NCBI GenBank assembly: GCA_040390125.1
Contig: JAZJYZ010000001.1
Location: 668,210-732,209 of the forward strand
Length of the DNA stretch: 64,000 nucleotides
Source of the DNA: Patescibacteria group bacterium
Lineage (GTDB): Bacteria; Patescibacteriota; Minisyncoccia; Phycocordibacterales; Phycocordibacteraceae
Reading direction: 5' to 3'
Shown: positions 2,135-57,756 of the stretch, one piece after another
Position numbering within the stretch: the stretch's first letter is position 1
How the letters are laid out: each line of letters begins with the position of its first letter
Made by a program: the position numbers and the translations under genes
Notes under the pieces: generated by a model
Database searches by the model: none
Told to the model about the DNA's origin: nothing
What the model saw: only the letters and a program-made list of their open reading frames with translations

Positions 2135-2980
2135 ATGAAGCGTTGGCTGATTTCAGTAAGTGTAGTAATACTCATCGCACTACTCTCAACACCTTTGCAG
2201 GTTGCCGCCGAAACAGCTTCCGCAGGGATTCCTGAGGGAAATATTTGGCTTTCGAAAAGGACTCTCACTGAAGGAGAATCGGTTCGCATATTTTTGCCTG
2301 TCTATAATGCGAGCGCAGTAAAGATTTCTGGCGATGCAGTCTTTTCTGTCGATGCGATACAAGTGGGTACTGCACATTTTGAACTTGACGTTGGAAACTC
2401 CACAATAGTATCGAGTCCGTGGATCACAACTAAAGGACCACACTCAATAACGGCACGACTTGAAGGTGCTGTTGACGCAAAAACGGGTACCGAAATCGCC
2501 GTATCAGCAAACACGGAAACACTTGCTGTTGATGTAACTGAACGACCACCTGCACCCGTATTAGTGCAAGCACTTGCGAGTGTTGCTGACGTTGCACAAA
2601 ACACTGCGGCCGCTCTGCTTCCTGTTGTCTCCTCAGTTGCTGGTGCAGTATTTGATCAAACTGAAGAAATAAGAAAAAGTGCAGTAGTTGCACTTGAAAA
2701 TTCGTTGAACGGAACAGATGCTTCATCCGATACAACCGCACCGCAGGGGTTAGTGTTAGGTGCTGAAACATATCGTGCACCTGATCTAGGAAATGGGCTC
2801 GTAGCTTCCGCAATTACTGCACCCGCATCAACAGGTTTCATGCGTATACTCCAGAGCATACTTCTCTTTCTTATAAGTTACGTATGGATATTTTATCCGC
2901 TCTTGATTTTGATTCTTCTTGCAATTTTATATGTCATAGGAAAAGGACTATCCCGCAAGAAAGCAGGGGCTAGGTTCTAG
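2135..2980 (+). CDS. Hypothetical secreted protein with C-terminal transmembrane anchor
   Basis: 281-aa ORF. Signal peptide MKRWLISVSVVILIALLSTPLQVAA. C-terminal hydrophobic helix ILLFLISYVWIFYPLLILILLAILYVI followed by a basic tail. Confidence 0.6.
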   Translation: MKRWLISVSVVILIALLSTPLQVAAETASAGIPEGNIWLSKRTLTEGESVRIFLPVYNASAVKISGDAVFSVDAIQVGTAHFELDVGNSTIVSSPWITTKGPHSITARLEGAVDAKTGTEIAVSANTETLAVDVTERPPAPVLVQALASVADVAQNTAAALLPVVSSVAGAVFDQTEEIRKSAVVALENSLNGTDASSDTTAPQGLVLGAETYRAPDLGNGLVASAITAPASTGFMRILQSILLFLISYVWIFYPLLILILLAILYVIGKGLSRKKAGARF

Positions 2981-3040
2981 CTTCTAGGTGCTAGTTTAAA
3001 TTTCTGAAAGCTAGAAGCTAACAGCTAGCACCTAGAACCT
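2969..3040. repeat. Heptamer-periodic ctag-type, roughly palindromic intergenic element between convergent genes
   Basis: Left arm aggttctag/cttctag/gtgctag, centre tttaaatttctgaaag, right arm ctagaag/ctaacag/ctagcac/ctagaacc (reverse-complement 7-mers). The same design recurs in more than 12 other intergenic gaps in this window. Confidence 0.8.
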
Positions 3041-4692: not shown

Positions 4693-4769
4693 AGGTGCTA
4701 GCTTCTAGGTTCTAGGTGCTAGCTTTAACTTCCGAAAGCTAGAACCTAGTACCTAGTCCCTAGTACCTC
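4693..4769. repeat. ctag-type heptamer-periodic palindromic element between convergent gene ends
   Basis: aggtgctagcttctaggttctaggtgctagc - tttaacttccgaaagc - tagaacctagtacctagtccctagtacctc. The arms are near-reverse-complements built from NNNctag 7-mers. Confidence 0.8.
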
Positions 4770-5658: not shown

Positions 5659-5696
5659 GAAAAAATAAATAACCACTACAGTTAACTGCAGTGGTT
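5659..5696 (-). terminator. Intrinsic terminator (hairpin aaccactacag-ttaa-ctgcagtggtt then a U-run on the minus strand)
   Basis: 11-bp stem with one mismatch and loop ttaa. Plus-strand A-run 5659-5670 gives the U-tract for minus-strand transcripts. It lies just downstream of the 5720..5938 ORF. Confidence 0.55.
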
Positions 5697-5719
5697 ATTG
5701 TTCTAATTAAATACTGCAA

Positions 5720-7349: not shown

Positions 7350-9149
7350 TTAGTGGAGCTTCAAAGCAAGCACGCTGAGCTCCTGCATGAGCGTCTCAGT
7401 TTTCGAATCATCATGTGCCATTTCGGCGACCCGCAATGATGCAAGAACTTCACGATAGCGTTCATGCCGAGATTCTTTCAAAAGTGCATCATACACTTCC
7501 TCGACCGCACTCTGTCGAAGCGATTCATCTTCATGACGCTCCAGAAAGAAATCGGCTTCGAATAATGCGGCACTGGTGTCCGTCGGGGCTTCGAGCAATA
7601 ATCGCAAACGCTCTTCGGAAAGCGCCCCCTTGAGGGCATTCAAGGCTAACTCGGCACCCGACTCATCTTTCTTTTCCTTATAGAGAAGTAGGAGCCCGAA
7701 TACAAGACGCTCGAGCACATCACCTCGTGACAAGAAAGGCTGGGACTGCGTTAGTACTGAGTTCTGAGTACTGAGTACTGAGCTCGGACTCTGGACTCTC
7801 GACTCTGAACTCTGAACTTTTTTAAGTTCCGCAATCACCGCATCCTCTCCAACTTGAAGCACTTCTGCAACACGCTTAATGAAATGTGCCTGGTCTATTT
7901 TGTGAGGAATCATTGCGACGTACGGTAGAACGGTACGGGAAACTTCAAGGCGGAATGTTCGTGCGTCATACTTAGCATCCGCAATGTGTGCAAGGTAAAA
8001 ATCAACCACGTGAAGAGCTCCTTTGACCGCCACTCTAAATGATTCTTTGTTTTCGAGAAGCATGTCTGCAGGGTCCTTCTCTGGGGGGAGTTTTACTATT
8101 TTTACGTCGAGACCAATCTGTAGCGCTATGCCAGCGGCACGCCCTGCAGCCGAGATGCCTGCCCTATCACCGTCATAGGCTATGAGGAGGTTACCGGTGT
8201 AGCGTTTTATTATTTCTGCGTGTGGAAGTGTAAACGCAGTTCCTGAGGTTGCGAGTGCGTTCCGATACCCTGCTTGGTGAGCCATGAGTAAATCAAGCTG
8301 TCCTTCAACGAGAAGTGCCGCACCGAGCTCTCGAATACCGTCACGTGCACGGTCAAGACCATAGAGTGCACGTGATTTATCGAATACAGGAGTTTCCGGA
8401 GAATTCAGATACTTGGCTTGCGGGTGCTTTTCATCGTCTTCAAAAATGCGGCCCGAAAACCCAATAACTCTCCCTGAAATATCCTTAATGGGAAACATGA
8501 TGCGACCACGAAACCGATCGTACGTCCGTGCCAAAGGCACGGACGAGTTCTGAGTTCCTAGTTCTGAGTTCTGAGTTAACTCTGGACTCGGAACTCTAGA
8601 CTCTGAACTTTCCTGCTGTTTCACTAGTCCCGCACGCTCCAAAAGAGCATCATCAAAATTCTTTTCAAGCAAAAAGTCCCGGAGACTATGCCACGCATTC
8701 GACGCATACCCCAAAGACCATGAAGATATAGTTTCTTCTGTTAACCCTCGCTTCGTGAGGTAGGTAAAAGCGTCTGGCTTTTCTTTGAGGGTCGCAGAGA
8801 AAAAACCATTAGCTGTTTCAAGAACAGAATACAAACGTTCACGCAAATCACGCTCACCAGGTTTCTCATCTTCTAGAGGGACGCCTGCTTTTTCTGCCAG
8901 CATTTTTAAGGAACCGCGAAAATCCACTCCTTCCATCTCTTGTAGGAATGTAAACATATCGCCTCCTTTGCCTGAGGAAAAACAGTGATACAAACCTCGG
9001 TCAGGAGAAACAAAAAATGAAGGGGTCTTTTCTTTCGTGAATGGAGAAAGCCCCTTGTAGTACTTCCCCGCACGTGTGAGCTTCACGTACTGCTGTACCA
9101 CTTCAAGAATAGTGAGTCGTTCCTTAATTTTATTGACGGTGTCGCTCAT
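7350..9149 (-). CDS. dnaG: DNA primase DnaG
   Basis: CHC2 zinc finger [15 protein letters not shown] and TOPRIM region EGQLDLL / YDGDRAG. Contains two in-frame low-complexity insertions (listed as repeats below). Confidence 0.9.
7750..7815. repeat. gagt(a/t)ct / gactctg heptamer mini-element inserted in frame inside dnaG
   Basis: agtactgagttctgagtactgagtactgagctc-ggactctggactctcgactctgaactctgaact, translated on the minus strand as [23 protein letters not shown]. Confidence 0.75.
8545..8618. repeat. Second copy of the gagttct/gactctg mini-element inside dnaG
   Basis: gagttctgagttcctagttctgagttctgagttaactctggactcggaactctagactctgaact, translated as [23 protein letters not shown]. Confidence 0.75.
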
Positions 9150-18811: not shown

Positions 18812-18919
18812 ATGTTAATTATACAACAAAATAAACAAAACACAAAGTCTCTAGGAATATAAAACACTCCGATTAATCGGAGTGTTTTATATCATTGTGG
18901 AATCTCCACGTACAAATTA

Positions 18920-24978: not shown

Positions 24979-25002
24979 TACCTTCATACAGAGATTTTCT
25001 CC

Positions 25003-25026
25003 TGTGCAACCTCCGGAGGTTGCACA
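25003..25026. repeat. 24-bp perfect palindrome tgtgcaacctccggaggttgcaca (TGTGC-N14-GCACA family) at the rnr 3' end
   Basis: Exact reverse-complement symmetry. A second identical copy is at 40229. The related copies 31836 and 40451 share the ends and the central ccgg. Confidence 0.85.
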
Positions 25027-25110
25027 GCTACTTACGAAGTGCATCTTGGCAAATTTTTCTGCATCAGAATCCAACGACCAAATTCTTTTTGATTCTGCTC
25101 TTTCAATTTC

Positions 25111-25584: not shown

Positions 25585-25794
25585 CTAATAACAAGATCTG
25601 TGTTCCTGACATCGGTACTGCACCTCATCCCAGGTGCGAGGAAACGAGTAAATAGCAGGTTGCCTGCAATTACCGAAATTACACGTATTCCCTTCCGGAC
25701 TGTATGGTCCACCAATCTTAAATAAGGCTTCGAAGTCTGCATCTCGTTTTCTCTGCATCCGGCGAGCGAATGCGTTTTCTTTATTTTCTCCCAT
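25585..25794 (-). CDS. Small Cys-rich hypothetical protein (69 aa)
   Basis: MGENKENAF... contains CNFGNC and CQEHRSC. Preceded by the same ~27-nt leader as the GNAT gene. Confidence 0.4.
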   Translation of the reverse strand: MGENKENAFARRMQRKRDADFEALFKIGGPYSPEGNTCNFGNCRQPAIYSFPRTWDEVQYRCQEHRSCY

Positions 25795-25851
25795 AGCAAA
25801 AAGCTTAAATTTTTTAAGAGAGCTATTCATATATATAAAAAGTTGAGCGCA

Positions 25852-26169
25852 CTACAGCGCCCAACGATTCACCAAAACAAAAAGCGTTTGAATATCAAGA
25901 CCGCTGTTCCCAAGAACGATGCGGGACAGGCTTCCAGCTTTTATGCTTTGGACAGGTCGGATCATGTTGTCTTCTTTTGACTGAACGAGTTCTGGTAAGA
26001 GAGACTCGTACCCACGCACACGTGCAGGCTTTTTCAGATGAATTATAGGCTTCAGGCATAGGAAAAATTTAGTTTTCATAAGGAGAGCTATTCGGGAATA
26101 TGAAAATGTGTCAGCGCATACTGCGCCAAAATACGGAACTACATACAAAAAATTAATTGGAAAGCTCAT
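25852..26169 (-). CDS. Hypothetical protein (105 aa from ATG 26169; the GTG-extended ORF reaches 26232)
   Basis: ORF-track only, no motif. The ATG start avoids overlap with the upstream ORF. Confidence 0.35.
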   Translation of the reverse strand: MSFPINFLYVVPYFGAVCADTFSYSRIALLMKTKFFLCLKPIIHLKKPARVRGYESLLPELVQSKEDNMIRPVQSIKAGSLSRIVLGNSGLDIQTLFVLVNRWAL

Positions 26170-26176
26170 ATTTTTC

Positions 26177-26392
26177 TCAAGTACGATATATGATTCTTCG
26201 AAATCGTGGTATTTCTTCCCTGTGTACTTCACCTAGAGAGCAACCACAGTCTCTGCAATATCCTTTGAATACCTTTCTACCGTTTTTAGCTGTTTCTACT
26301 TCACGGTACACTCCGTGATGTTTTTTCTGCTCTGCTTCAAGACCAGAACATAGTGGAGCACTGACTGACTCAGGACTGAATAGTGATGACAT
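26177..26392 (-). CDS. Small Cys-rich hypothetical protein (71 aa); C-terminal part of a TAA-split ORF
   Basis: CRDCGC motif. An in-frame 43-aa ORF (26402..26533) ends at a TAA four codons upstream of this gene's ATG. Confidence 0.4.
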   Translation of the reverse strand: MSSLFSPESVSAPLCSGLEAEQKKHHGVYREVETAKNGRKVFKGYCRDCGCSLGEVHREEIPRFRRIIYRT

Positions 26393-26401
26393 ACAAATGA
26401 A

Positions 26402-26533
26402 TTACCAACCAAACCTGTGCTCGGCTTTGCACTCAGGTTTTATAATTCGGAAACCCCACTCATCAAACTCGCTACATATGCAACGCTCGCGAGGCTTCAG
26501 TGGCTCCCATATTGCTATAGATTCGATAGACAT
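26402..26533 (-). CDS. 43-aa Cys-containing ORF in frame with 26177..26392, separated from it by a single TAA
   Basis: MSIESIAIWEPLKPRERCICSEFDEWGFRIIKPECKAEHRFGW then stop. Below the ORF-track cutoff. Either an independent micro-gene or the N-terminal part of an interrupted gene. Confidence 0.3.
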   Translation of the reverse strand: MSIESIAIWEPLKPRERCICSEFDEWGFRIIKPECKAEHRFGW

Positions 26534-26593
26534 AGAGAAAAAACATTAATTGCATAAGGGATTCTTCTTGCTTTGTTTGGTAAGTTCTTAAAC

Positions 26594-26869
26594 TTACCTT
26601 CTTTCGTGCGTAGGGCAATCCCAATGAGGTTTACGTACACCTTTGACTGTTTTACAGAAGCAGGGCTGTCCAATGCCAGCGTCTCGATTTACTTTTGGGA
26701 TTCGAATCGTTCCACCAAAGAGCATTCTCGTCATGTAGCGTAAATTGAATTCTGCCACTTCAGGAGCGATAGCTCGCAAGCGAGCGAGATCCGCTTGAAT
26801 TCTTCGACGTAAGATGTCGGATTCGTTGCTACGCCAATTATATTTGGGATCTGTTGGTTCAAATGCCAT
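26594..26869 (-). CDS. Hypothetical protein (91 aa) with C-terminal CxC...HWDCPTH motif
   Basis: ATG start. Possible zinc-binding motif CFCKTVKGVRKPHWDCPTHERR. Confidence 0.4.
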   Translation of the reverse strand: MAFEPTDPKYNWRSNESDILRRRIQADLARLRAIAPEVAEFNLRYMTRMLFGGTIRIPKVNRDAGIGQPCFCKTVKGVRKPHWDCPTHERR

Positions 26870-27063
26870 AGGAAAAAATTAGATTGGTGGTAAAAGAGAC
26901 TATTACTGTTATGTGAAAATTTCTGGGCTTATGCCCAGAAATAAAAACCGAAGAAATAGAAAGCGACAGCACTGATGATGCCAGTTGGCTTGAGGTCAAT
27001 GGCTATCGCTTTAGTCATTACTACGCATGGTATCAAAAATACCCTACGTGTCAATTAACAAAG

Positions 27064-27258
27064 CTAGCGTAGATGAGGAGGTATTTCCTTAGCCTCTCTA
27101 TTTCGGATAACTGACAATGCTCTTCTTCGTGCGCCCGCTATCGACTCTCCACCACGTCTAGTAATTCTTACAATGTGCTTTGCTCGTGCTTTACGTCTTT
27201 GATCTGGGGTTAAATCTGCTGGTACTCCTCCCAATGAAACTCCTTCAAAGTTTGCCAT
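27064..27258 (-). CDS. Small basic hypothetical protein (64 aa)
   Basis: ATG ORF MANFEGVSLGG..., Arg-rich (RRKARAKHIVRITRRGG). No recognised family. Confidence 0.35.
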   Translation of the reverse strand: MANFEGVSLGGVPADLTPDQRRKARAKHIVRITRRGGESIAGARRRALSVIRNREAKEIPPHLR

Positions 27259-27319
27259 ATGAATATTCGATTATCAGTAACCTAAGCAGTATAAAGAAAA
27301 ACCATCTTCAACACAAAGT

Positions 27320-31776: not shown

Positions 31777-31835
31777 GTCGGGAAAATAACACAACAATAC
31801 CCGCAATGCAAGAGGAGTAATTTTAGCCCGTTTTT

Positions 31836-31859
31836 TGTGCTACACCCGGGTGTAGCACA
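31836..31859. repeat. 24-bp perfect palindrome tgtgctacacccgggtgtagcaca downstream of rnc
   Basis: Exact palindrome flanked by tttttt and aaa. An identical copy is at 40451. Confidence 0.85.
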
Positions 31860-31907
31860 AAGTACCCCTCTTTCCCTAAACACTAAACACTGTCCACTAA
31901 ACCCTAA

Positions 31908-40154: not shown

Positions 40155-40189
40155 TCGACTAATCAGAGTTAACTGCCAAAATCACCCCT

Positions 40190-40216
40190 CATGTAGGACA
40201 TACGATGTCCTACATG
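40190..40216 (+). terminator. Perfect 12-bp hairpin catgtaggacat-acg-atgtcctacatg downstream of thrS
   Basis: Exact stem 36 nt after the thrS stop. No U-tract. Immediately followed by the 24-bp palindrome at 40229. Confidence 0.4.
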
Positions 40217-40228
40217 GTTATCTTCGTT

Positions 40229-40252
40229 TGTGCAACCTCCGGAGGTTGCACA
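40229..40252. repeat. 24-bp palindrome tgtgcaacctccggaggttgcaca (second copy)
   Basis: Identical to 25003-25026. Confidence 0.85.
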
Positions 40253-40450
40253 AACACAAATATTACTTGGGGGAATGAGTCGCAGTTTGCTGCAGAAATG
40301 CTTCTACCACGCCCTTTGGAGCTCGTCGCATCAAGTCCAGGAAGAACTTATACCTACTACCTCCCCTGCCAAGACCCCACCAGACATTTACGAGTTGCTC
40401 TAGGGTTACCGGTTTTAAAGCCTCTCGATGTTCCATATTTTTGATGTATT

Positions 40451-40474
40451 TGTGCTACACCCGGGTGTAGCACA
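40451..40474. repeat. 24-bp palindrome tgtgctacacccgggtgtagcaca (second copy)
   Basis: Identical to 31836-31859. Lies 60 nt past the 3' end of the adhesin gene. Confidence 0.85.
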
Positions 40475-40533
40475 AAATTGGTGGGATTAATCTGCGGGCT
40501 GTCACACCTTCCCTTCTCATACGTTTTAGTTAA

Positions 40534-43500
40534 TTATCCTACCACCTCAAATGCTTGAGCAAGAGCGAGCTTCACACCAGTGAATGGTGAAGCATACACG
40601 GTGTCGAGGGAGTGCGTGAAGATATTCACGAGACTCGCAAGCTGTTCATCCGAAAGGTGTGATGCTGAATCTGCAAGAGTCGTGTCTACTGCAGGACGAT
40701 TGTCTTTACGAGTACGGTACAAGGTGTCGAGTACAGTTGCAGTGGAGGTTAGAAGTGCAGTTGGGCTCACTCCATCGTGTTCGAATGAACGAATGATACC
40801 GAAAGCGACGTCACGATTTCCTAGTGCGACAGCACCTGCGAATGCAGAAGCTCCGGCGGTGTCGATGGTCTTTGTTGGTGTATCTACCGAAATAGGAGCT
40901 GGTTCAGAAGGTGCGAATGCAGATGCAGTTGGAGGAACTATTGGTGTTCCCTTCTCGGTACCAGCAAGATCCGCAAAACGATCAGTGGTGAGCATAACCC
41001 AGCCATTTTCACGAGGTACGGTGCGAACTGCTTCGTTCAAAATGTTACCGAAGATACGGAGTGCCTCAACTCTGTCTGGAGATGCCGAGACTGCAAGCGT
41101 TACTGCTTCTGGCGACATGAGTACGCCAGCTGCGTGTGCACGAGATTCAATGACATCACGAACATCAGGAACTCCGTCTACTGCTGGAGTCTTTGCTTGA
41201 GGAGGAGGAACAACAACAGCAGCAGTAAACGCAGGTACTACAGGAGCCACTGGTGCTCTGTATGCTACAGGTGCTGGGGCAACACTCTCTGTAAATGCAG
41301 GTGCAGTCTGATGCACTGGTATATCAGCATTTGGATATGGAGTTCCATAAAGAGCTTCACGTTGATGTTCATGTACTTCAGCAGGACTTTGATGTTGCGG
41401 AATAAAGCGTCCACCTGCATATCCGAGAATGTAACGAATACCTCCCTTACCTGCCACGAAGTACGCAGCGAAAGCTGAGAGGAGTCCTATGGCAAGCCAG
41501 AAAAGAATAGTGAGCGCAGGTCCTGCATCAAAGCCCGTGTACGGAATTTGTGAGAGCGAAACGAACGCCAATGGTTGGTTAGTGAGTTGTTTGAACATGA
41601 CTACGTTTGGCTGGTCTAACCCGCCACCACAACTCGTTGTACATCCCGAAGGCGGAGTAACAATGACAGTTCGCTGACATGACGCAGTGCCGTTCGGACC
41701 TGTGAATGTTCCTGTGTAGGTCGTATCGCTCGGTGGGAACATATCAATGGAGCCTCCCGCAACCGGACTTACTGAACCAATACCTCCAGTGATAGAACCA
41801 CTCGTGGCGTTAGCACTCGTCCACGACACAGTGACACTCTCTCCGGTTCGTATTGAAGAACGAGAAACTGTAATCGTACATGCAGGCCCTGGTGTCGTTA
41901 CTGTAATAGTAGTCTGGCACGTAGCGGTAGCACCAAACCCACTGGTGACAGTCATGGTGTAAGTAATCGTGTTTGAAATCGAAACTGCAGTAGCGCCAGA
42001 AATTACCGGAGTCACTGCGCCAACGCCATGATCAATGGATGCAGATACAGCATTCGTGGTTGTCCACGAGAGCGCTGAAGCATCTCCCGCATTCACGGAG
42101 GAAGGTGTTGCACTCAAAACACATGCAGGAGTTGCAGGTGGTGTTACGACAATCGTCTGCTGACACGTTACCGTGCCACCAGCGCCCGTTGCGGTAAGAG
42201 CATAGGTTGTTGAAGAAGCTGGTGAGACTGATCGGGAACCGTTTGCAGTAACAGAGCCAATACCTTGAGTTATATTCACAGAGCTCGCATTCGTGGTAGT
42301 CCACGTTAACGTGGAGGATCCACCCGAAGAAATAGTTGAGGGCGTTGCATCAAGAGTACAGGTTGGTGCTGGGTTTGGTGTCACGGTAACACTCACACCA
42401 CAAAGCACTGAGCCGCCAGGACCCGTTGCGGTGAGGCTGTACGTATGTGTGCCGTTGCCAAGAGGTGGAGTGAAATCGAAGGAACCAGAAAGACCTTGAG
42501 GGACTGGAATCGTTGGCGACGCAGTAGTAGGAGTAACAACAACCGCAGTTGCGTTTGTAGTGCTCCAGCTTATTTGATTTTTTGAAAGATCAATAGAGCA
42601 GACAGGCGCAGGAGACACCGTCACGGTAATTATTTTTTGGCACGTCACCGTGCCACCAGGACCCGTTGCGGTAAGAGTGTACGTAGTGGTAACCGTTGGA
42701 TGCACGCTTGCGGAGCCATTAGTAGCTACTGCACCAATTCCTGGAACAATACTTACTGATGTTGCGTACGCAGTCGTCCACGAAAGTGTTGCTGAATTGC
42801 CCGCAGTAATAGTTGAAACCGAAGCGGTCAAACTACACGATGGTGCAGGGTTGCTAGCAACCGTAATAGTTTTCTGACACGTCACCGTGCCACCAGCGCC
42901 CGTTGCGGTGAGGGTGTACGTAGTCGTGACGGAAGGGACGACAATAACTGAACCGTTCGCTAACGATTGCGAGCCCACACCTTGGTCGATAGAGATGGTA
43001 GATACGTTAGCGGTAGTCCACGAAAGTATCGCCGAACCTCCTGGAATAACACCAGAAGATGCAACTACCGTTGAAGGAGACGCATCAAGCGTACAGAAAG
43101 GCGCAGAAGGAGGTGGGTCAATGTGTATCGTACCCATGCAGACTACTGAGCCTCCAGCACCAGTGGCAGTGAGTGTGTACGAATGGACACCCGGTCCCAA
43201 GTCAGGATTGAAATTGAACGAACCATTAAGCCCAGGACTTGGAATGGCAGGAGAACCAGTGGTCGAAACGAGTGTCACAGAGCTTGCATGAATGGTTGTC
43301 CAGGAAATTGCACTTGGTGACAAATCAAGAATACAAACAGGTAATGGCGCAGGAATCACCGTAACACCTTGTGCACACGTAACTGTGCCTCCCGGACCCG
43401 TTGCGGTGAGTGTATACACCGTCGAGGAGTTCGGCGAAACAGAAGTCGAACCGTTTTGCGTAACACTGCCAATACCCTGATTGATGTTTACAGAAGTAAC

Positions 43501-44298
43501 ATTCGTAGTGGTCCAAGAAAGTGTTGACGAACCACCCTCATTGATTGAGGTTGGATTGGCACTCAGCGTACACGTCGGTGCAGGCTCAGGAGTAATAGTA
43601 ACGGTGACAGCACAAAGAACTGATCCACCAGGACCTGTTGCGGTTAAGTTGTATGTGTGAGTACCAGAGCCAAGAGCAGGTACAAAGTTATAAGAACCTG
43701 AAAGTCCGTGCGGAGCCGGAACAACCGGAGAGCCCGCAGTCAAAGTGTTTATAGTGACGGACGTTGCGTTTACGGTGTTCCAAATAAGTCGATCTTTTGA
43801 AAGGTCAGCAGAACATACAGGCATCGGAGATGACTCGACAACGATAGTTTTCTGGCAGGTCACGGTGCCGCTCGGTCCTGAGCCGGTGAGCGTATAAGTT
43901 GTCGTTACAGAAGGCGAAACGCTAGTGGAACCGTTCTTGGCTACAGTACCAACTCCATTATCAATGGAAACAACGGTGACTTTCTTAGTGGTCCATGAGA
44001 GCGTTGCCGACTCACCGGCAGAAATTTGACTTGGTGCACCATCAAGCTTGCATGAGGGCGGCACTCCACCGCCCCCACCGCCTCTGTCTTCCGTATTTTC
44101 ATAAGGACCGTTCTGGTAGCCCCAAAGGAAGAAGTCGACGTAGCCACAACCACCACAACCAACTCCTGCTGCTTCTGCAGTTATAGAAGTCTGATCAAAA
44201 GAAAGATTTGCAACGTCCATTGAAAACCATGCGCCAATCGAAAAAACGGCGATAATCGCTACGATGAGGAGTCCTGATTTTTTTACGATGTTTGTCAT
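40534..44298 (-). CDS. Giant surface adhesin with ~9 tandem Cys-bracketed Ig-like domains, an internal IPYTG sorting signal plus TM segment, and a 300-aa C-terminal domain
   Basis: 1254 aa. Signal/anchor MTNIVKKSGLLIVAIIAVFSIGAW. Repeated ~85-aa units PxC.L.A.PS.I..G.S.TLSWTT.N..SV.I..GIG.V..NGS.SV.P...TTYTLTATGPGGTVTCQ. Residues 918-956 read SQIPYTGFDAGPALTILFWLAIGLLSAFAAYFVAGKGGIRY. Confidence 0.8.
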   Translation of the reverse strand: MTNIVKKSGLLIVAIIAVFSIGAWFSMDVANLSFDQTSITAEAAGVGCGGCGYVDFFLWGYQNGPYENTEDRGGGGGGVPPSCKLDGAPSQISAGESATLSWTTKKVTVVSIDNGVGTVAKNGSTSVSPSVTTTYTLTGSGPSGTVTCQKTIVVESSPMPVCSADLSKDRLIWNTVNATSVTINTLTAGSPVVPAPHGLSGSYNFVPALGSGTHTYNLTATGPGGSVLCAVTVTITPEPAPTCTLSANPTSINEGGSSTLSWTTTNVTSVNINQGIGSVTQNGSTSVSPNSSTVYTLTATGPGGTVTCAQGVTVIPAPLPVCILDLSPSAISWTTIHASSVTLVSTTGSPAIPSPGLNGSFNFNPDLGPGVHSYTLTATGAGGSVVCMGTIHIDPPPSAPFCTLDASPSTVVASSGVIPGGSAILSWTTANVSTISIDQGVGSQSLANGSVIVVPSVTTTYTLTATGAGGTVTCQKTITVASNPAPSCSLTASVSTITAGNSATLSWTTAYATSVSIVPGIGAVATNGSASVHPTVTTTYTLTATGPGGTVTCQKIITVTVSPAPVCSIDLSKNQISWSTTNATAVVVTPTTASPTIPVPQGLSGSFDFTPPLGNGTHTYSLTATGPGGSVLCGVSVTVTPNPAPTCTLDATPSTISSGGSSTLTWTTTNASSVNITQGIGSVTANGSRSVSPASSTTYALTATGAGGTVTCQQTIVVTPPATPACVLSATPSSVNAGDASALSWTTTNAVSASIDHGVGAVTPVISGATAVSISNTITYTMTVTSGFGATATCQTTITVTTPGPACTITVSRSSIRTGESVTVSWTSANATSGSITGGIGSVSPVAGGSIDMFPPSDTTYTGTFTGPNGTASCQRTVIVTPPSGCTTSCGGGLDQPNVVMFKQLTNQPLAFVSLSQIPYTGFDAGPALTILFWLAIGLLSAFAAYFVAGKGGIRYILGYAGGRFIPQHQSPAEVHEHQREALYGTPYPNADIPVHQTAPAFTESVAPAPVAYRAPVAPVVPAFTAAVVVPPPQAKTPAVDGVPDVRDVIESRAHAAGVLMSPEAVTLAVSASPDRVEALRIFGNILNEAVRTVPRENGWVMLTTDRFADLAGTEKGTPIVPPTASAFAPSEPAPISVDTPTKTIDTAGASAFAGAVALGNRDVAFGIIRSFEHDGVSPTALLTSTATVLDTLYRTRKDNRPAVDTTLADSASHLSDEQLASLVNIFTHSLDTVYASPFTGVKLALAQAFEVVG

Positions 44299-49146: not shown

Positions 49147-49186
49147 TTATGTATATTTTTTAATTTCATATCTTAATCACTGTCAT

Positions 49187-49220
49187 GTCTAAAAAATTAC
49201 CATATGGTAATTTTTTAGAC
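49187..49220. repeat. 34-bp perfect palindrome gtctaaaaaattaccat|atggtaattttttagac
   Basis: Exact reverse-complement symmetry centred on catatg, in an AT-rich region upstream of the 49355 ORF. Possible operator. Confidence 0.85.
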
Positions 49221-49244
49221 AGGTCATGTAGTGTGTGACTCTAC

Positions 49245-49266
49245 CCTATACGATCGATCGTATAGG
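49245..49266. repeat. 22-bp perfect palindrome cctatacgatcgatcgtatagg (left flank of the cassette)
   Basis: Exact palindrome. A near-identical copy ctatacgattgatcgtatag is at 50035-50060 on the other side of the 49355..49990 gene. Confidence 0.85.
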
Positions 49267-50060: not shown

Positions 50061-50082
50061 GAATAAAAAAATACTACAGTTA

Positions 50083-50118
50083 ACTGTAGTATTTTTGGTG
50101 TCTTCCCTAAACCCTAGT
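50083..50118. terminator. Bidirectional intrinsic terminator A7-atactacag-ttaa-ctgtagtat-T5
   Basis: Perfect 9-bp stem with flanking A and T tracts. Shares the core ctacagttaactg(t/c)ag with the terminator at 5671. Serves the cassette gene (+) and gyrB (-). Confidence 0.7.
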
Positions 50119-57689: not shown

Positions 57690-57756
57690 ACAATTTAAAA
57701 AGCAAAAAGAGCTGTATAGCATAATATGACGGTCGTCATATTATACTATACAGCTC
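57690..57756 (-). terminator. Intrinsic terminator of the PEGA-GT2 transcript (long hairpin then a U-run on the minus strand)
   Basis: gagctgtatagcataatatgac-ggtc-gtcatattatactatacagctc has ~22-bp arms with one mismatch. The plus-strand A-run 57690-57708 gives the U-tract. A second perfect 16-bp hairpin ggtacacgtggggcta-cctctagg-tagccccacgtgtacc lies just upstream at 57778-57817. Confidence 0.65.

Follow-up and report, generated by a model that had tools for sequence, protein, structure and literature searches.

Palindromic hairpin repeats past genes of a Paceibacterota bacterium as probable REP elements of a REP–RAYT system

Four perfect 24-bp palindromes are found in a 64,000-nucleotide stretch of the genome of a Patescibacteria group bacterium (assembly GCA_040390125.1, contig JAZJYZ010000001.1, positions 668,210 to 732,209), called the window hereafter and numbered from its first letter. 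We conclude, with a probability of roughly 0.83, that they are repetitive extragenic palindromic (REP) elements belonging to a system formed with a REP-associated tyrosine transposase (RAYT), in a member of the Paceibacterota, within the candidate phyla radiation (CPR, or Patescibacteria). The evidence comes from the compensatory variation of the repeat, from its extragenic placement at gene 3' ends, and from related genomes, in which the same 24-mer brackets a Y1/HUH transposase gene and co-varies with it.

Results

The palindromes form a family of hairpins

All four palindromes of the window are intergenic, and they come as two arm variants, A and B, which differ at three paired positions, that is by six substitutions. 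The original prediction, made from the sequence alone, had listed four copies of two variants at 25003, 31836, 40229 and 40451, and these positions proved exact. Its description of the layout had to be corrected, because a spacing of N6 retrieves zero matches, whereas TGTGC-N5-CCGG-N5-GCACA recovers 4/4 copies. Site-specific flanks add 1-3 bp of palindrome to each copy, as follows (no strand is assigned to these features; energies are for the RNA fold).

25002..25027: probable REP copy, variant A; core 25003-25026, TGTGCAACCTCCGGAGGTTGCACA, plus 1 bp per side; -17.8 kcal/mol, z = -5.2
31834..31861: probable REP copy, variant B; core 31836-31859, TGTGCTACACCCGGGTGTAGCACA, plus a TT/AA extension; -18.1 kcal/mol
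40226..40255: probable REP copy, variant A; core 40229-40252, plus a GTT/AAC extension; -20.5 kcal/mol, z = -7.2
40449..40476: probable REP copy, variant B; core 40451-40474, plus a TT/AA extension; -17.2 kcal/mol

Dinucleotide-preserving shuffles put the chance expectation for the palindrome patterns at 0.00 to 0.08 matches. No further degenerate copy was found in the window when up to three mismatches were allowed, nor was any 12-nt half-site outside the four palindromes (the count of 4 per variant corresponds to 2 palindromes read on 2 strands). Searches of the window with Rfam, at gathering thresholds, and with ARAGORN returned one tRNA-Thr only, and no match at the palindromes.

The pattern TGTGCWACNNCCGGNNGTWGCACA was then used to scan one genome per bacterial or archaeal species, 185,579 species in total. 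It gave 26 matches at 22 loci (L001-L022), exclusively in seven Patescibacteria/Paceibacterota metagenome-assembled genomes (MAGs), with 2-6 copies per genome under this restricted pattern. The closest relative of the window's threonyl-tRNA synthetase (ThrRS), at 94% amino acid identity, is encoded by one of the motif-bearing genomes (JAGOSG), and the thrS region of the window is syntenic with three of the seven MAGs, which places the window in the Paceibacterota. The same motif had 0 matches in 2.9 million viral contigs, which leaves a phage origin unsupported.

Positions left unconstrained by the pattern were complementary in 25 of the 26 matches, the remaining one being a T·G wobble. Over all the sequence examined, 36 copies with seven arm variants were collected (AACCT, TACAC, AACAT, AACAC, AACTC, TAAAC and AAGGC); 35 of them are perfect palindromes including the CCGG centre, their two strands being identical. 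The four variable pairs showed 44 double-sided changes, 1 wobble and 0 mismatches, and the covariation score was 0.408 versus 0.143 in shuffles, none of which (0/500) reached 0.408. Compensatory changes between variants, which the original prediction had proposed to look for, are thus present. Pairing also extends beyond the 24-mer: the -1/+1 flanking pair is complementary in 32/36 copies and the -2/+2 pair in 30/36, and site-specific complementary flanks add at least 3 bp in 19/36 copies, with a maximum of 9 bp. A pyrimidine precedes TGTGC in 60 of the 72 half-flanks. The compensatory arms and the pairing into unique flanks therefore indicate a base-paired hairpin with a conserved apex, and not merely a symmetric binding site. 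In this respect the original prediction was right to propose a hairpin or protein-recognition family rather than random duplicates, the arm differences being compensatory.

Candidate causes for the lengthening of the stem by unique flanks are insertion into pre-existing hairpins, selection for stability and target preference. Two related loci show further detail. In locus L022, a single spacer contains three REP copies (1939, 2197 and 2229) belonging to two variants, and only 8 nt separate two of these copies. Locus L012 carries a degenerate half-REP at 2035-2060 (taataccagggtgttgcaca), as well as apparent extra small open reading frames (ORFs), which are putative, between thrS and a large repeat-protein gene (1880-2540).

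The same hairpin brackets a Y1/HUH transposase gene in related genomes

In six of the seven genomes, a gene of 220-232 amino acids (aa) is flanked by the same 24-mer, 20-50 bp away: on both sides in L004, L020, L005 and L008+L011, and with one flank visible in L014, L002 and L103. In the seventh genome (L104), both flanks are the arm variant AAGGC. The hairpin-gene-hairpin unit measures about 790 bp.

The encoded protein has the fold and the catalytic motifs of a RAYT. It scores 31-45 bits against Pfam Y1_Tnp (cutoff 23), and its best NCBIfam family is REP_Tyr_transpos (NF047646). The motifs H96-x-H98 and Y156 do not vary and are separated by 58 aa, within the HuH-to-Y range of about 58-67 aa of TnpA-REP proteins (PMC6006769), and a C-terminal extension carries the sequence YPWSS. 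A single-sequence search of the PDB found nothing relevant, and a profile search gave a weak match to ISDra2 at the HUH motif (E = 0.09). Foldseek, run on an AlphaFold model (pLDDT 82), gave as best match 4ER8, the E. coli TnpA-REP with its REP hairpin (E = 2.4e-5), followed by the TnpA proteins of IS608 and ISDra2.

The hairpin varies with the protein. RAYT identities of at least 92%, of 82% and of 54% go with the arms AACCT, AACAC and AACAT, respectively. Close RAYT relatives retain the TGTGCAAC… hairpin, those at 47-48% identity have TGTGCAACATC[C/G]GATGTTGCACA or TGTGCAATATC[A/T]GATATTGCACA, and below about 45% identity the hairpins are unrelated. Distant relatives keep a hairpin, in which the CCGG centre is swapped for a 1-nt loop, and the left and right loops of the relatives' flanking hairpins are often reverse complements. 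Among 80 distant homologues taken from metagenomes, 55 could be tested for flank sharing, and in 46 of these at least 12 nt were common to both flanks, almost always as a hairpin, as compared with 14 of 171 control genes from the same loci. Matching flank hairpins that co-vary with the protein are what characterises REP–RAYT systems, or REPtrons (PMC6006769; PMC5581495).

Six Paceibacterota genomes share the gene order rplB, PKD/CARDB surface protein(s), REP, RAYT, REP, rpsS, rplV, rpsC:

L004:1899-3149; L104:9957-11160; L008/L011, L014, L020 and L002: REP-flanked RAYT in the ribosomal-protein cluster

The REP downstream of RAYT abuts a promoter-like site (TTGACA-N17-TAGTAT) placed before rpsS. 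This position beside rpsS was seen in none of 59 distant relatives, and L005 lacks it too. Within the loci examined, RAYT occurs once per genome, and tnpB is not adjacent. A single locus, conserved in synteny, is in keeping with a domesticated RAYT passed on vertically rather than with an insertion sequence.

Copies lie at gene 3' ends and turn over at one site

Placement relative to genes was recorded for 33 copies, from the window and L001-L022, using crude ORF calls under which about 87% of the sequence is coding. Convergent spacers contained 17 copies and tandem spacers 12, the latter mostly nearer the upstream stop than the next start, and the 22 divergent spacers contained none. Of the other four copies, two fell in crude ORFs of doubtful reality and two at the edges of loci. 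The original prediction had placed the repeats at gene 3' ends, and all four copies of the window are indeed just past stop codons; in the census, convergent and tandem spacers together account for 29/33 copies, as against 0 for divergent spacers.

At the orthologous spot that follows the thrS hairpin (described below), variant A is present in the window and in L015, and variant B (TACAC) in L016, so that REP variants have turned over at this one site. Locus L012 has AACAC just past thrS, at what may be the same spot, and copy 40451 sits in a stretch missing from the orthologous L016 spacer. Because A and B differ by six substitutions, an exchange by replacement or re-insertion at the thrS site seems more plausible than stepwise drift, although no clean empty site was found.

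Genes and terminators next to the window copies

Copy 25003 lies in a convergent spacer, 24 nt past the stop of the RNase R gene (RNB domain) and 84 nt from the stop of a GNAT gene. Copy 31836-31859 is 48 nt past the stop of the RNase III gene, on the minus strand, and upstream of an unverified 63-aa ORF, after which comes a canonical terminator (31603-31579). Copy 40229 is 74 nt past the stop of thrS, 11 nt past the terminator-like hairpin of this gene, and 10 nt past the stop of a minus-strand 57-aa ORF; copy 40451 precedes the start of the 57-aa ORF by 14 nt and is 59 nt past the stop of a minus-strand gene for a 1254-aa repeat protein. These last two copies are 198 bp apart, with the ORF between them.

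40189..40217, plus strand: thrS terminator-like hairpin; 13-bp stem, ACG loop, T-rich tail TTATCTTCGT, -17.9 kcal/mol
40263..40436, minus strand: small ORF, 57 aa, between the two thrS-side REP copies

A domain search bears out RNase R, RNase III and ThrRS as the neighbours named in the original prediction. The name 'adhesin', given there to the 1254-aa protein, is a plausible, unverified label, a Pfam search of this protein having produced zero matches. The protein (40534-44298, minus strand) consists of many Ig-like repeats of about 90 aa (…TLSWTT…TYTLTATGPGGT…) with a C-terminal hydrophobic segment. The 57-aa ORF is conserved, the L016 ORF in the corresponding place being 43% identical to it across 46 aa (E = 5e-14); the short thrS spacer of L015 lacks this ORF.

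The hairpin at 40189-40217 looks like thrS's own terminator. It is conserved in L016 (about 1411-1441), with one compensatory A-T to G-C change, and no second copy of it was found in the window or in related loci. The hairpin that had been reported at 40190, ahead of the thrS-side copies, is thus real, but it is not a member of the REP family. Canonical U-tract terminators are present in the window, for example at 31603-31579, at 25865-25842 and in this thrS hairpin. None of the four REP copies (0/4) was called terminator-like, though other hairpins in the same region were, and the copies lack a canonical U-tract, as originally noted, none of the four having a T tail.

Other features of the window

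Other perfect palindromes, with no loop, are present at 18857-18892, 49186-49221, 49245-49266, 50067-50096 and 5668-5699, and further ones at 57708 and 57776. Those at 18857, 49186 and 50067 have an A-tract/stem/T-tract layout and look like bidirectional intrinsic terminators, and those at 5668 and 50067 have a common core, CTACAGTTAACTG. None of these palindromes is repeated in the related loci.

The tetranucleotide CGCG is nearly absent from the window (1-64000), with 12 occurrences versus 147 expected from trinucleotide frequencies (observed/expected 0.08), which looks like restriction-site avoidance; for GGCC, GCGC and GATC, observed/expected is about 0.5-0.6. At 2965-3040, 4693-4768 and 8546-8609, long and imperfect inverted repeats are made up of degenerate, CTAG-rich units (AGGTGCTAGCTTCTAGGTTCTAG-like). 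Finally, ORFs of more than about 90 aa are lacking from both strands over about 1.7 kb (25600-27300), perhaps because of a pseudogene region or some non-coding feature there.

Discussion

A model for the repeat and its transposase

We propose that a copy of the repeat, once single-stranded, for instance at a replication fork, would fold into a 10-bp stem with a CCGG loop, the stem being usually lengthened by 1-3 (up to 9) site-specific bp. The single-copy Y1/HUH RAYT, whose own gene is bracketed by two such hairpins, would recognise this structure and would nick and rejoin DNA there. Binding and cleavage of the hairpin by RAYT, as well as movement of the copies by a RAYT route, are suggested by homology and by the arrangement of gene and repeats. 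Such an activity would seed, replace and homogenise copies where insertion does no harm, in the spacers that follow stop codons. The palindrome being perfect, the same hairpin would form from both DNA strands and from both possible transcripts. The REP hairpins may also act in RNA, by stabilising the 3' ends of mRNAs.

Several observations weigh against assigning the palindromes to a REP–RAYT system. The repeat has no GT[AG]G guide tetranucleotide: its TGTGC foot is paired with GCACA, and neither GTAG nor GTGG is present. The copies are perfect palindromes devoid of strand asymmetry, unlike canonical REPs, and they appear to be few, with 4 per 64 kb in the window and 2-6 per genome for the restricted pattern of the scan. 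On the protein side, the scores of RAYT against NF047646 REP_Tyr_transpos (29.6-38.3 bits) do not reach the equivalog cutoff of 80 bits, and an F takes the place of the W that is conserved in TnpA-REPs before the GTAG-contacting Q (E. coli). No RAYT gene was found in the 64-kb window by tblastn or by a six-frame profile search; the genome of this organism probably encodes one, the link to RAYT resting on its relatives. The arms TACAC and TAAAC were never observed flanking a RAYT. A clean pair of empty and filled sites was not found either, so that we infer mobility of the copies from indirect evidence.

Alternative explanations

The palindromes could be terminators, or hairpins that stabilise or process mRNA, evolved in place with no tie to a transposase. 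All copies are just past stop codons, their RNA hairpins are stable (-17 to -20.5 kcal/mol), and site-specific flanks lengthen the stem by at least 3 bp in 19/36 copies, as one would expect of such elements. We nevertheless regard this origin as improbable. The same 24-mers follow unrelated genes in seven species, which terminator function alone does not require, and the bracketing of, and co-variation with, a Y1 transposase gene would be left unexplained. The U-tract is missing, and the T's 5' and A's 3' of the B copies have the wrong polarity for one. Ordinary U-tract terminators exist in the same genome, including bidirectional ones of the A-tract/T-tract kind; thrS has its own, upstream of the REP, and copy 31836 apparently lies inside a transcription unit that ends at the canonical terminator 31603-31579. 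Factor-dependent terminators or RNase-processing hairpins, put forward in the original prediction, are thus disfavoured as the primary identity, given the 24-mers that flank a Y1/HUH gene and the separate U-tract terminators. Its other proposal, a class of binding sites or hairpins, survives as a hairpin family recognised by a protein, to which the tie with RAYT, not considered at that time, has to be added. A secondary, co-opted role of the REPs in mRNA 3'-end stability or termination is possible.

Instead of being the REPs of a domesticated RAYT, the palindromes might mark the ends of an autonomous element of the IS200/IS605 type, or be solo ends of one. In favour are the Pfam Y1_Tnp match of the flanked gene, the additional match of its model to the TnpA of IS608 and ISDra2, and the size of the unit, about 790 bp, which is typical of an IS200. 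This origin is very improbable, because a single syntenic locus between rplB and rpsS, conserved in six genomes, points to vertical inheritance and not to hopping. Moreover, the gene is found in one copy per genome in the loci, with no tnpB; the two flanks have the same hairpin, where an insertion sequence would have a different one at each end; the dispersed copies are for the most part lone 24-mers, beside which no remnant of an insertion sequence is seen; and the best structural match is a TnpA-REP. Operators bound on double-stranded DNA by a dimeric regulator or a nucleoid protein would account for the perfect two-fold symmetry, for the conserved outer TGTGC and central CCGG blocks, and for the promoter-like site abutted by the copy downstream of RAYT. 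They are more doubtful still: the copies concentrate at the 3' ends of genes and within convergent spacers, with 0 in 22 divergent promoter spacers, strictly compensatory variation and pairing into unique flanks fit base pairing and not base readout, and the distant relatives keep the hairpin while replacing the CCGG centre by a 1-nt loop. We give least credence to inverted pairs of a DNA-uptake sequence (DUS), comparable to the DUS pairs found at terminators in Neisseria. CPR bacteria are thought to depend on DNA uptake, and, as far as general knowledge of DUS goes, conserved oligomers specific to a group of species and placed as inverted pairs after genes would fit. Yet the window has no isolated half-sites, the copy number observed is far too low, and the arms vary between and within genomes.

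We also considered a restriction-site reading of the CCGG centre, and discard it: the window shows no avoidance of CCGG (observed/expected 0.84), and in distant relatives a 1-nt loop takes the place of this centre.

Beyond the assignment to a REP–RAYT system, the RAYT might serve the host: wired into the ribosomal-protein operon in this clade of streamlined CPR bacteria, with strand-symmetric and guide-less REPs, the pair would then be a host-level system and not a selfish remnant. We consider this rather unlikely. One possible function is RAYT-dependent hairpin processing where genes end, carried out on either strand of the DNA and without the GTAG guide of known REPs, and it could be used in 3'-end definition, in replication-transcription conflicts, or in targeted insertion into pre-existing terminator stems. 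The latter would explain why unique flanks extend the stem.

Comparison with known systems

The closest structural match comes from E. coli, where REP/BIME (bacterial interspersed mosaic element) sequences and TnpA-REP (4ER8) combine extragenic hairpin repeats past genes with a single-copy Y1/HUH gene bracketed by them (REPtron), as we find here. The HuH-Y spacing is alike too (about 58-67 aa, and 58 in the CPR protein), with a protein identity of about 12% between the CPR RAYT and 4ER8. The repeats themselves differ. Those of E. coli are imperfect palindromes with an unpaired 5' GT[AG]G guide, present in hundreds of copies; those of the CPR bacteria are perfect, have a paired TGTGC foot and appear to number a handful. 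An unpaired 5' GT[AG]G at the hairpin foot belongs to the canonical definition of a REP (PMC6006769).

Also comparable are the atypical and 'double-foot' REPs of TnpA-Y1 subclasses 2.4 and 2.6 and of class 3 (Quentin et al. 2018, PMC6006769), which either are symmetric, both ends carrying a foot plus its reverse complement, or lack GT[AG]G, and which flank tnpA-REP-like genes. Their proteins have a C-terminal extension with conserved serine(s), to which the YPWSS of the CPR RAYT may be compared. The hosts differ, being Proteobacteria, Bacteroidetes, Cyanobacteria, Planctomycetes and others. That survey of complete genomes found tnpA-Y1 mainly in larger genomes and in none of the 35 assembled Mollicute (Tenericutes) genomes sampled, and neither Parcubacteria, Patescibacteria, Microgenomates nor any Candidatus taxon is named in it (PMC6006769).

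The REPIN–RAYT systems of Pseudomonas and Enterobacteria (Bertels & Rainey 2011; Bertels et al. 2017, PMC5581495) likewise associate a single-copy, vertically inherited RAYT with a dispersed cognate repeat, and have several repeat subfamilies per genome. A REPIN joins two inverted REPs across a short spacer and is present tens to hundreds of times, whereas the CPR copies are mostly solitary and each of them is symmetric. By the low abundance of its flanking 16-mers, the CPR system is nearer to RAYT Groups 1 and 4 (PMC5581495). With the IS200/IS605 family (IS608, ISDra2), it shares the Y1/HUH fold and, by our model, the recognition of subterminal DNA hairpins on single-stranded DNA. Multiple copies, horizontal mobility, differing ends and a frequent tnpB, which are traits of that family, were not observed for the CPR unit. 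Rho-independent terminators are also stable stem-loops past stop codons, but the CPR REPs have no U-tract and are identical in sequence at unrelated genes.

REP–RAYT is therefore a known kind of element, and atypical or 'double-foot' REPs were known already; what we found no published description of is their occurrence in an ultra-small CPR genome. Our literature searches brought up no paper that connects Patescibacteria/CPR with RAYT, REPIN or REP elements, and repetitive extragenic elements go unmentioned in the top-ranked CPR papers among their results. Work on REP–RAYT systems has dealt mainly with Proteobacteria and with other phyla whose genomes are larger. That sub-megabase CPR genomes conserve such a pair, with the RAYT kept in a ribosomal-protein cluster, suggests that it is tolerated or useful despite extreme streamlining. 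In the annotation of CPR MAGs, such repeats should not be labelled terminators or operators, and their variants could be used as lineage markers. The symmetric, guide-less 24-bp repeat would offer a very simple substrate on which to test hairpin recognition by a RAYT.

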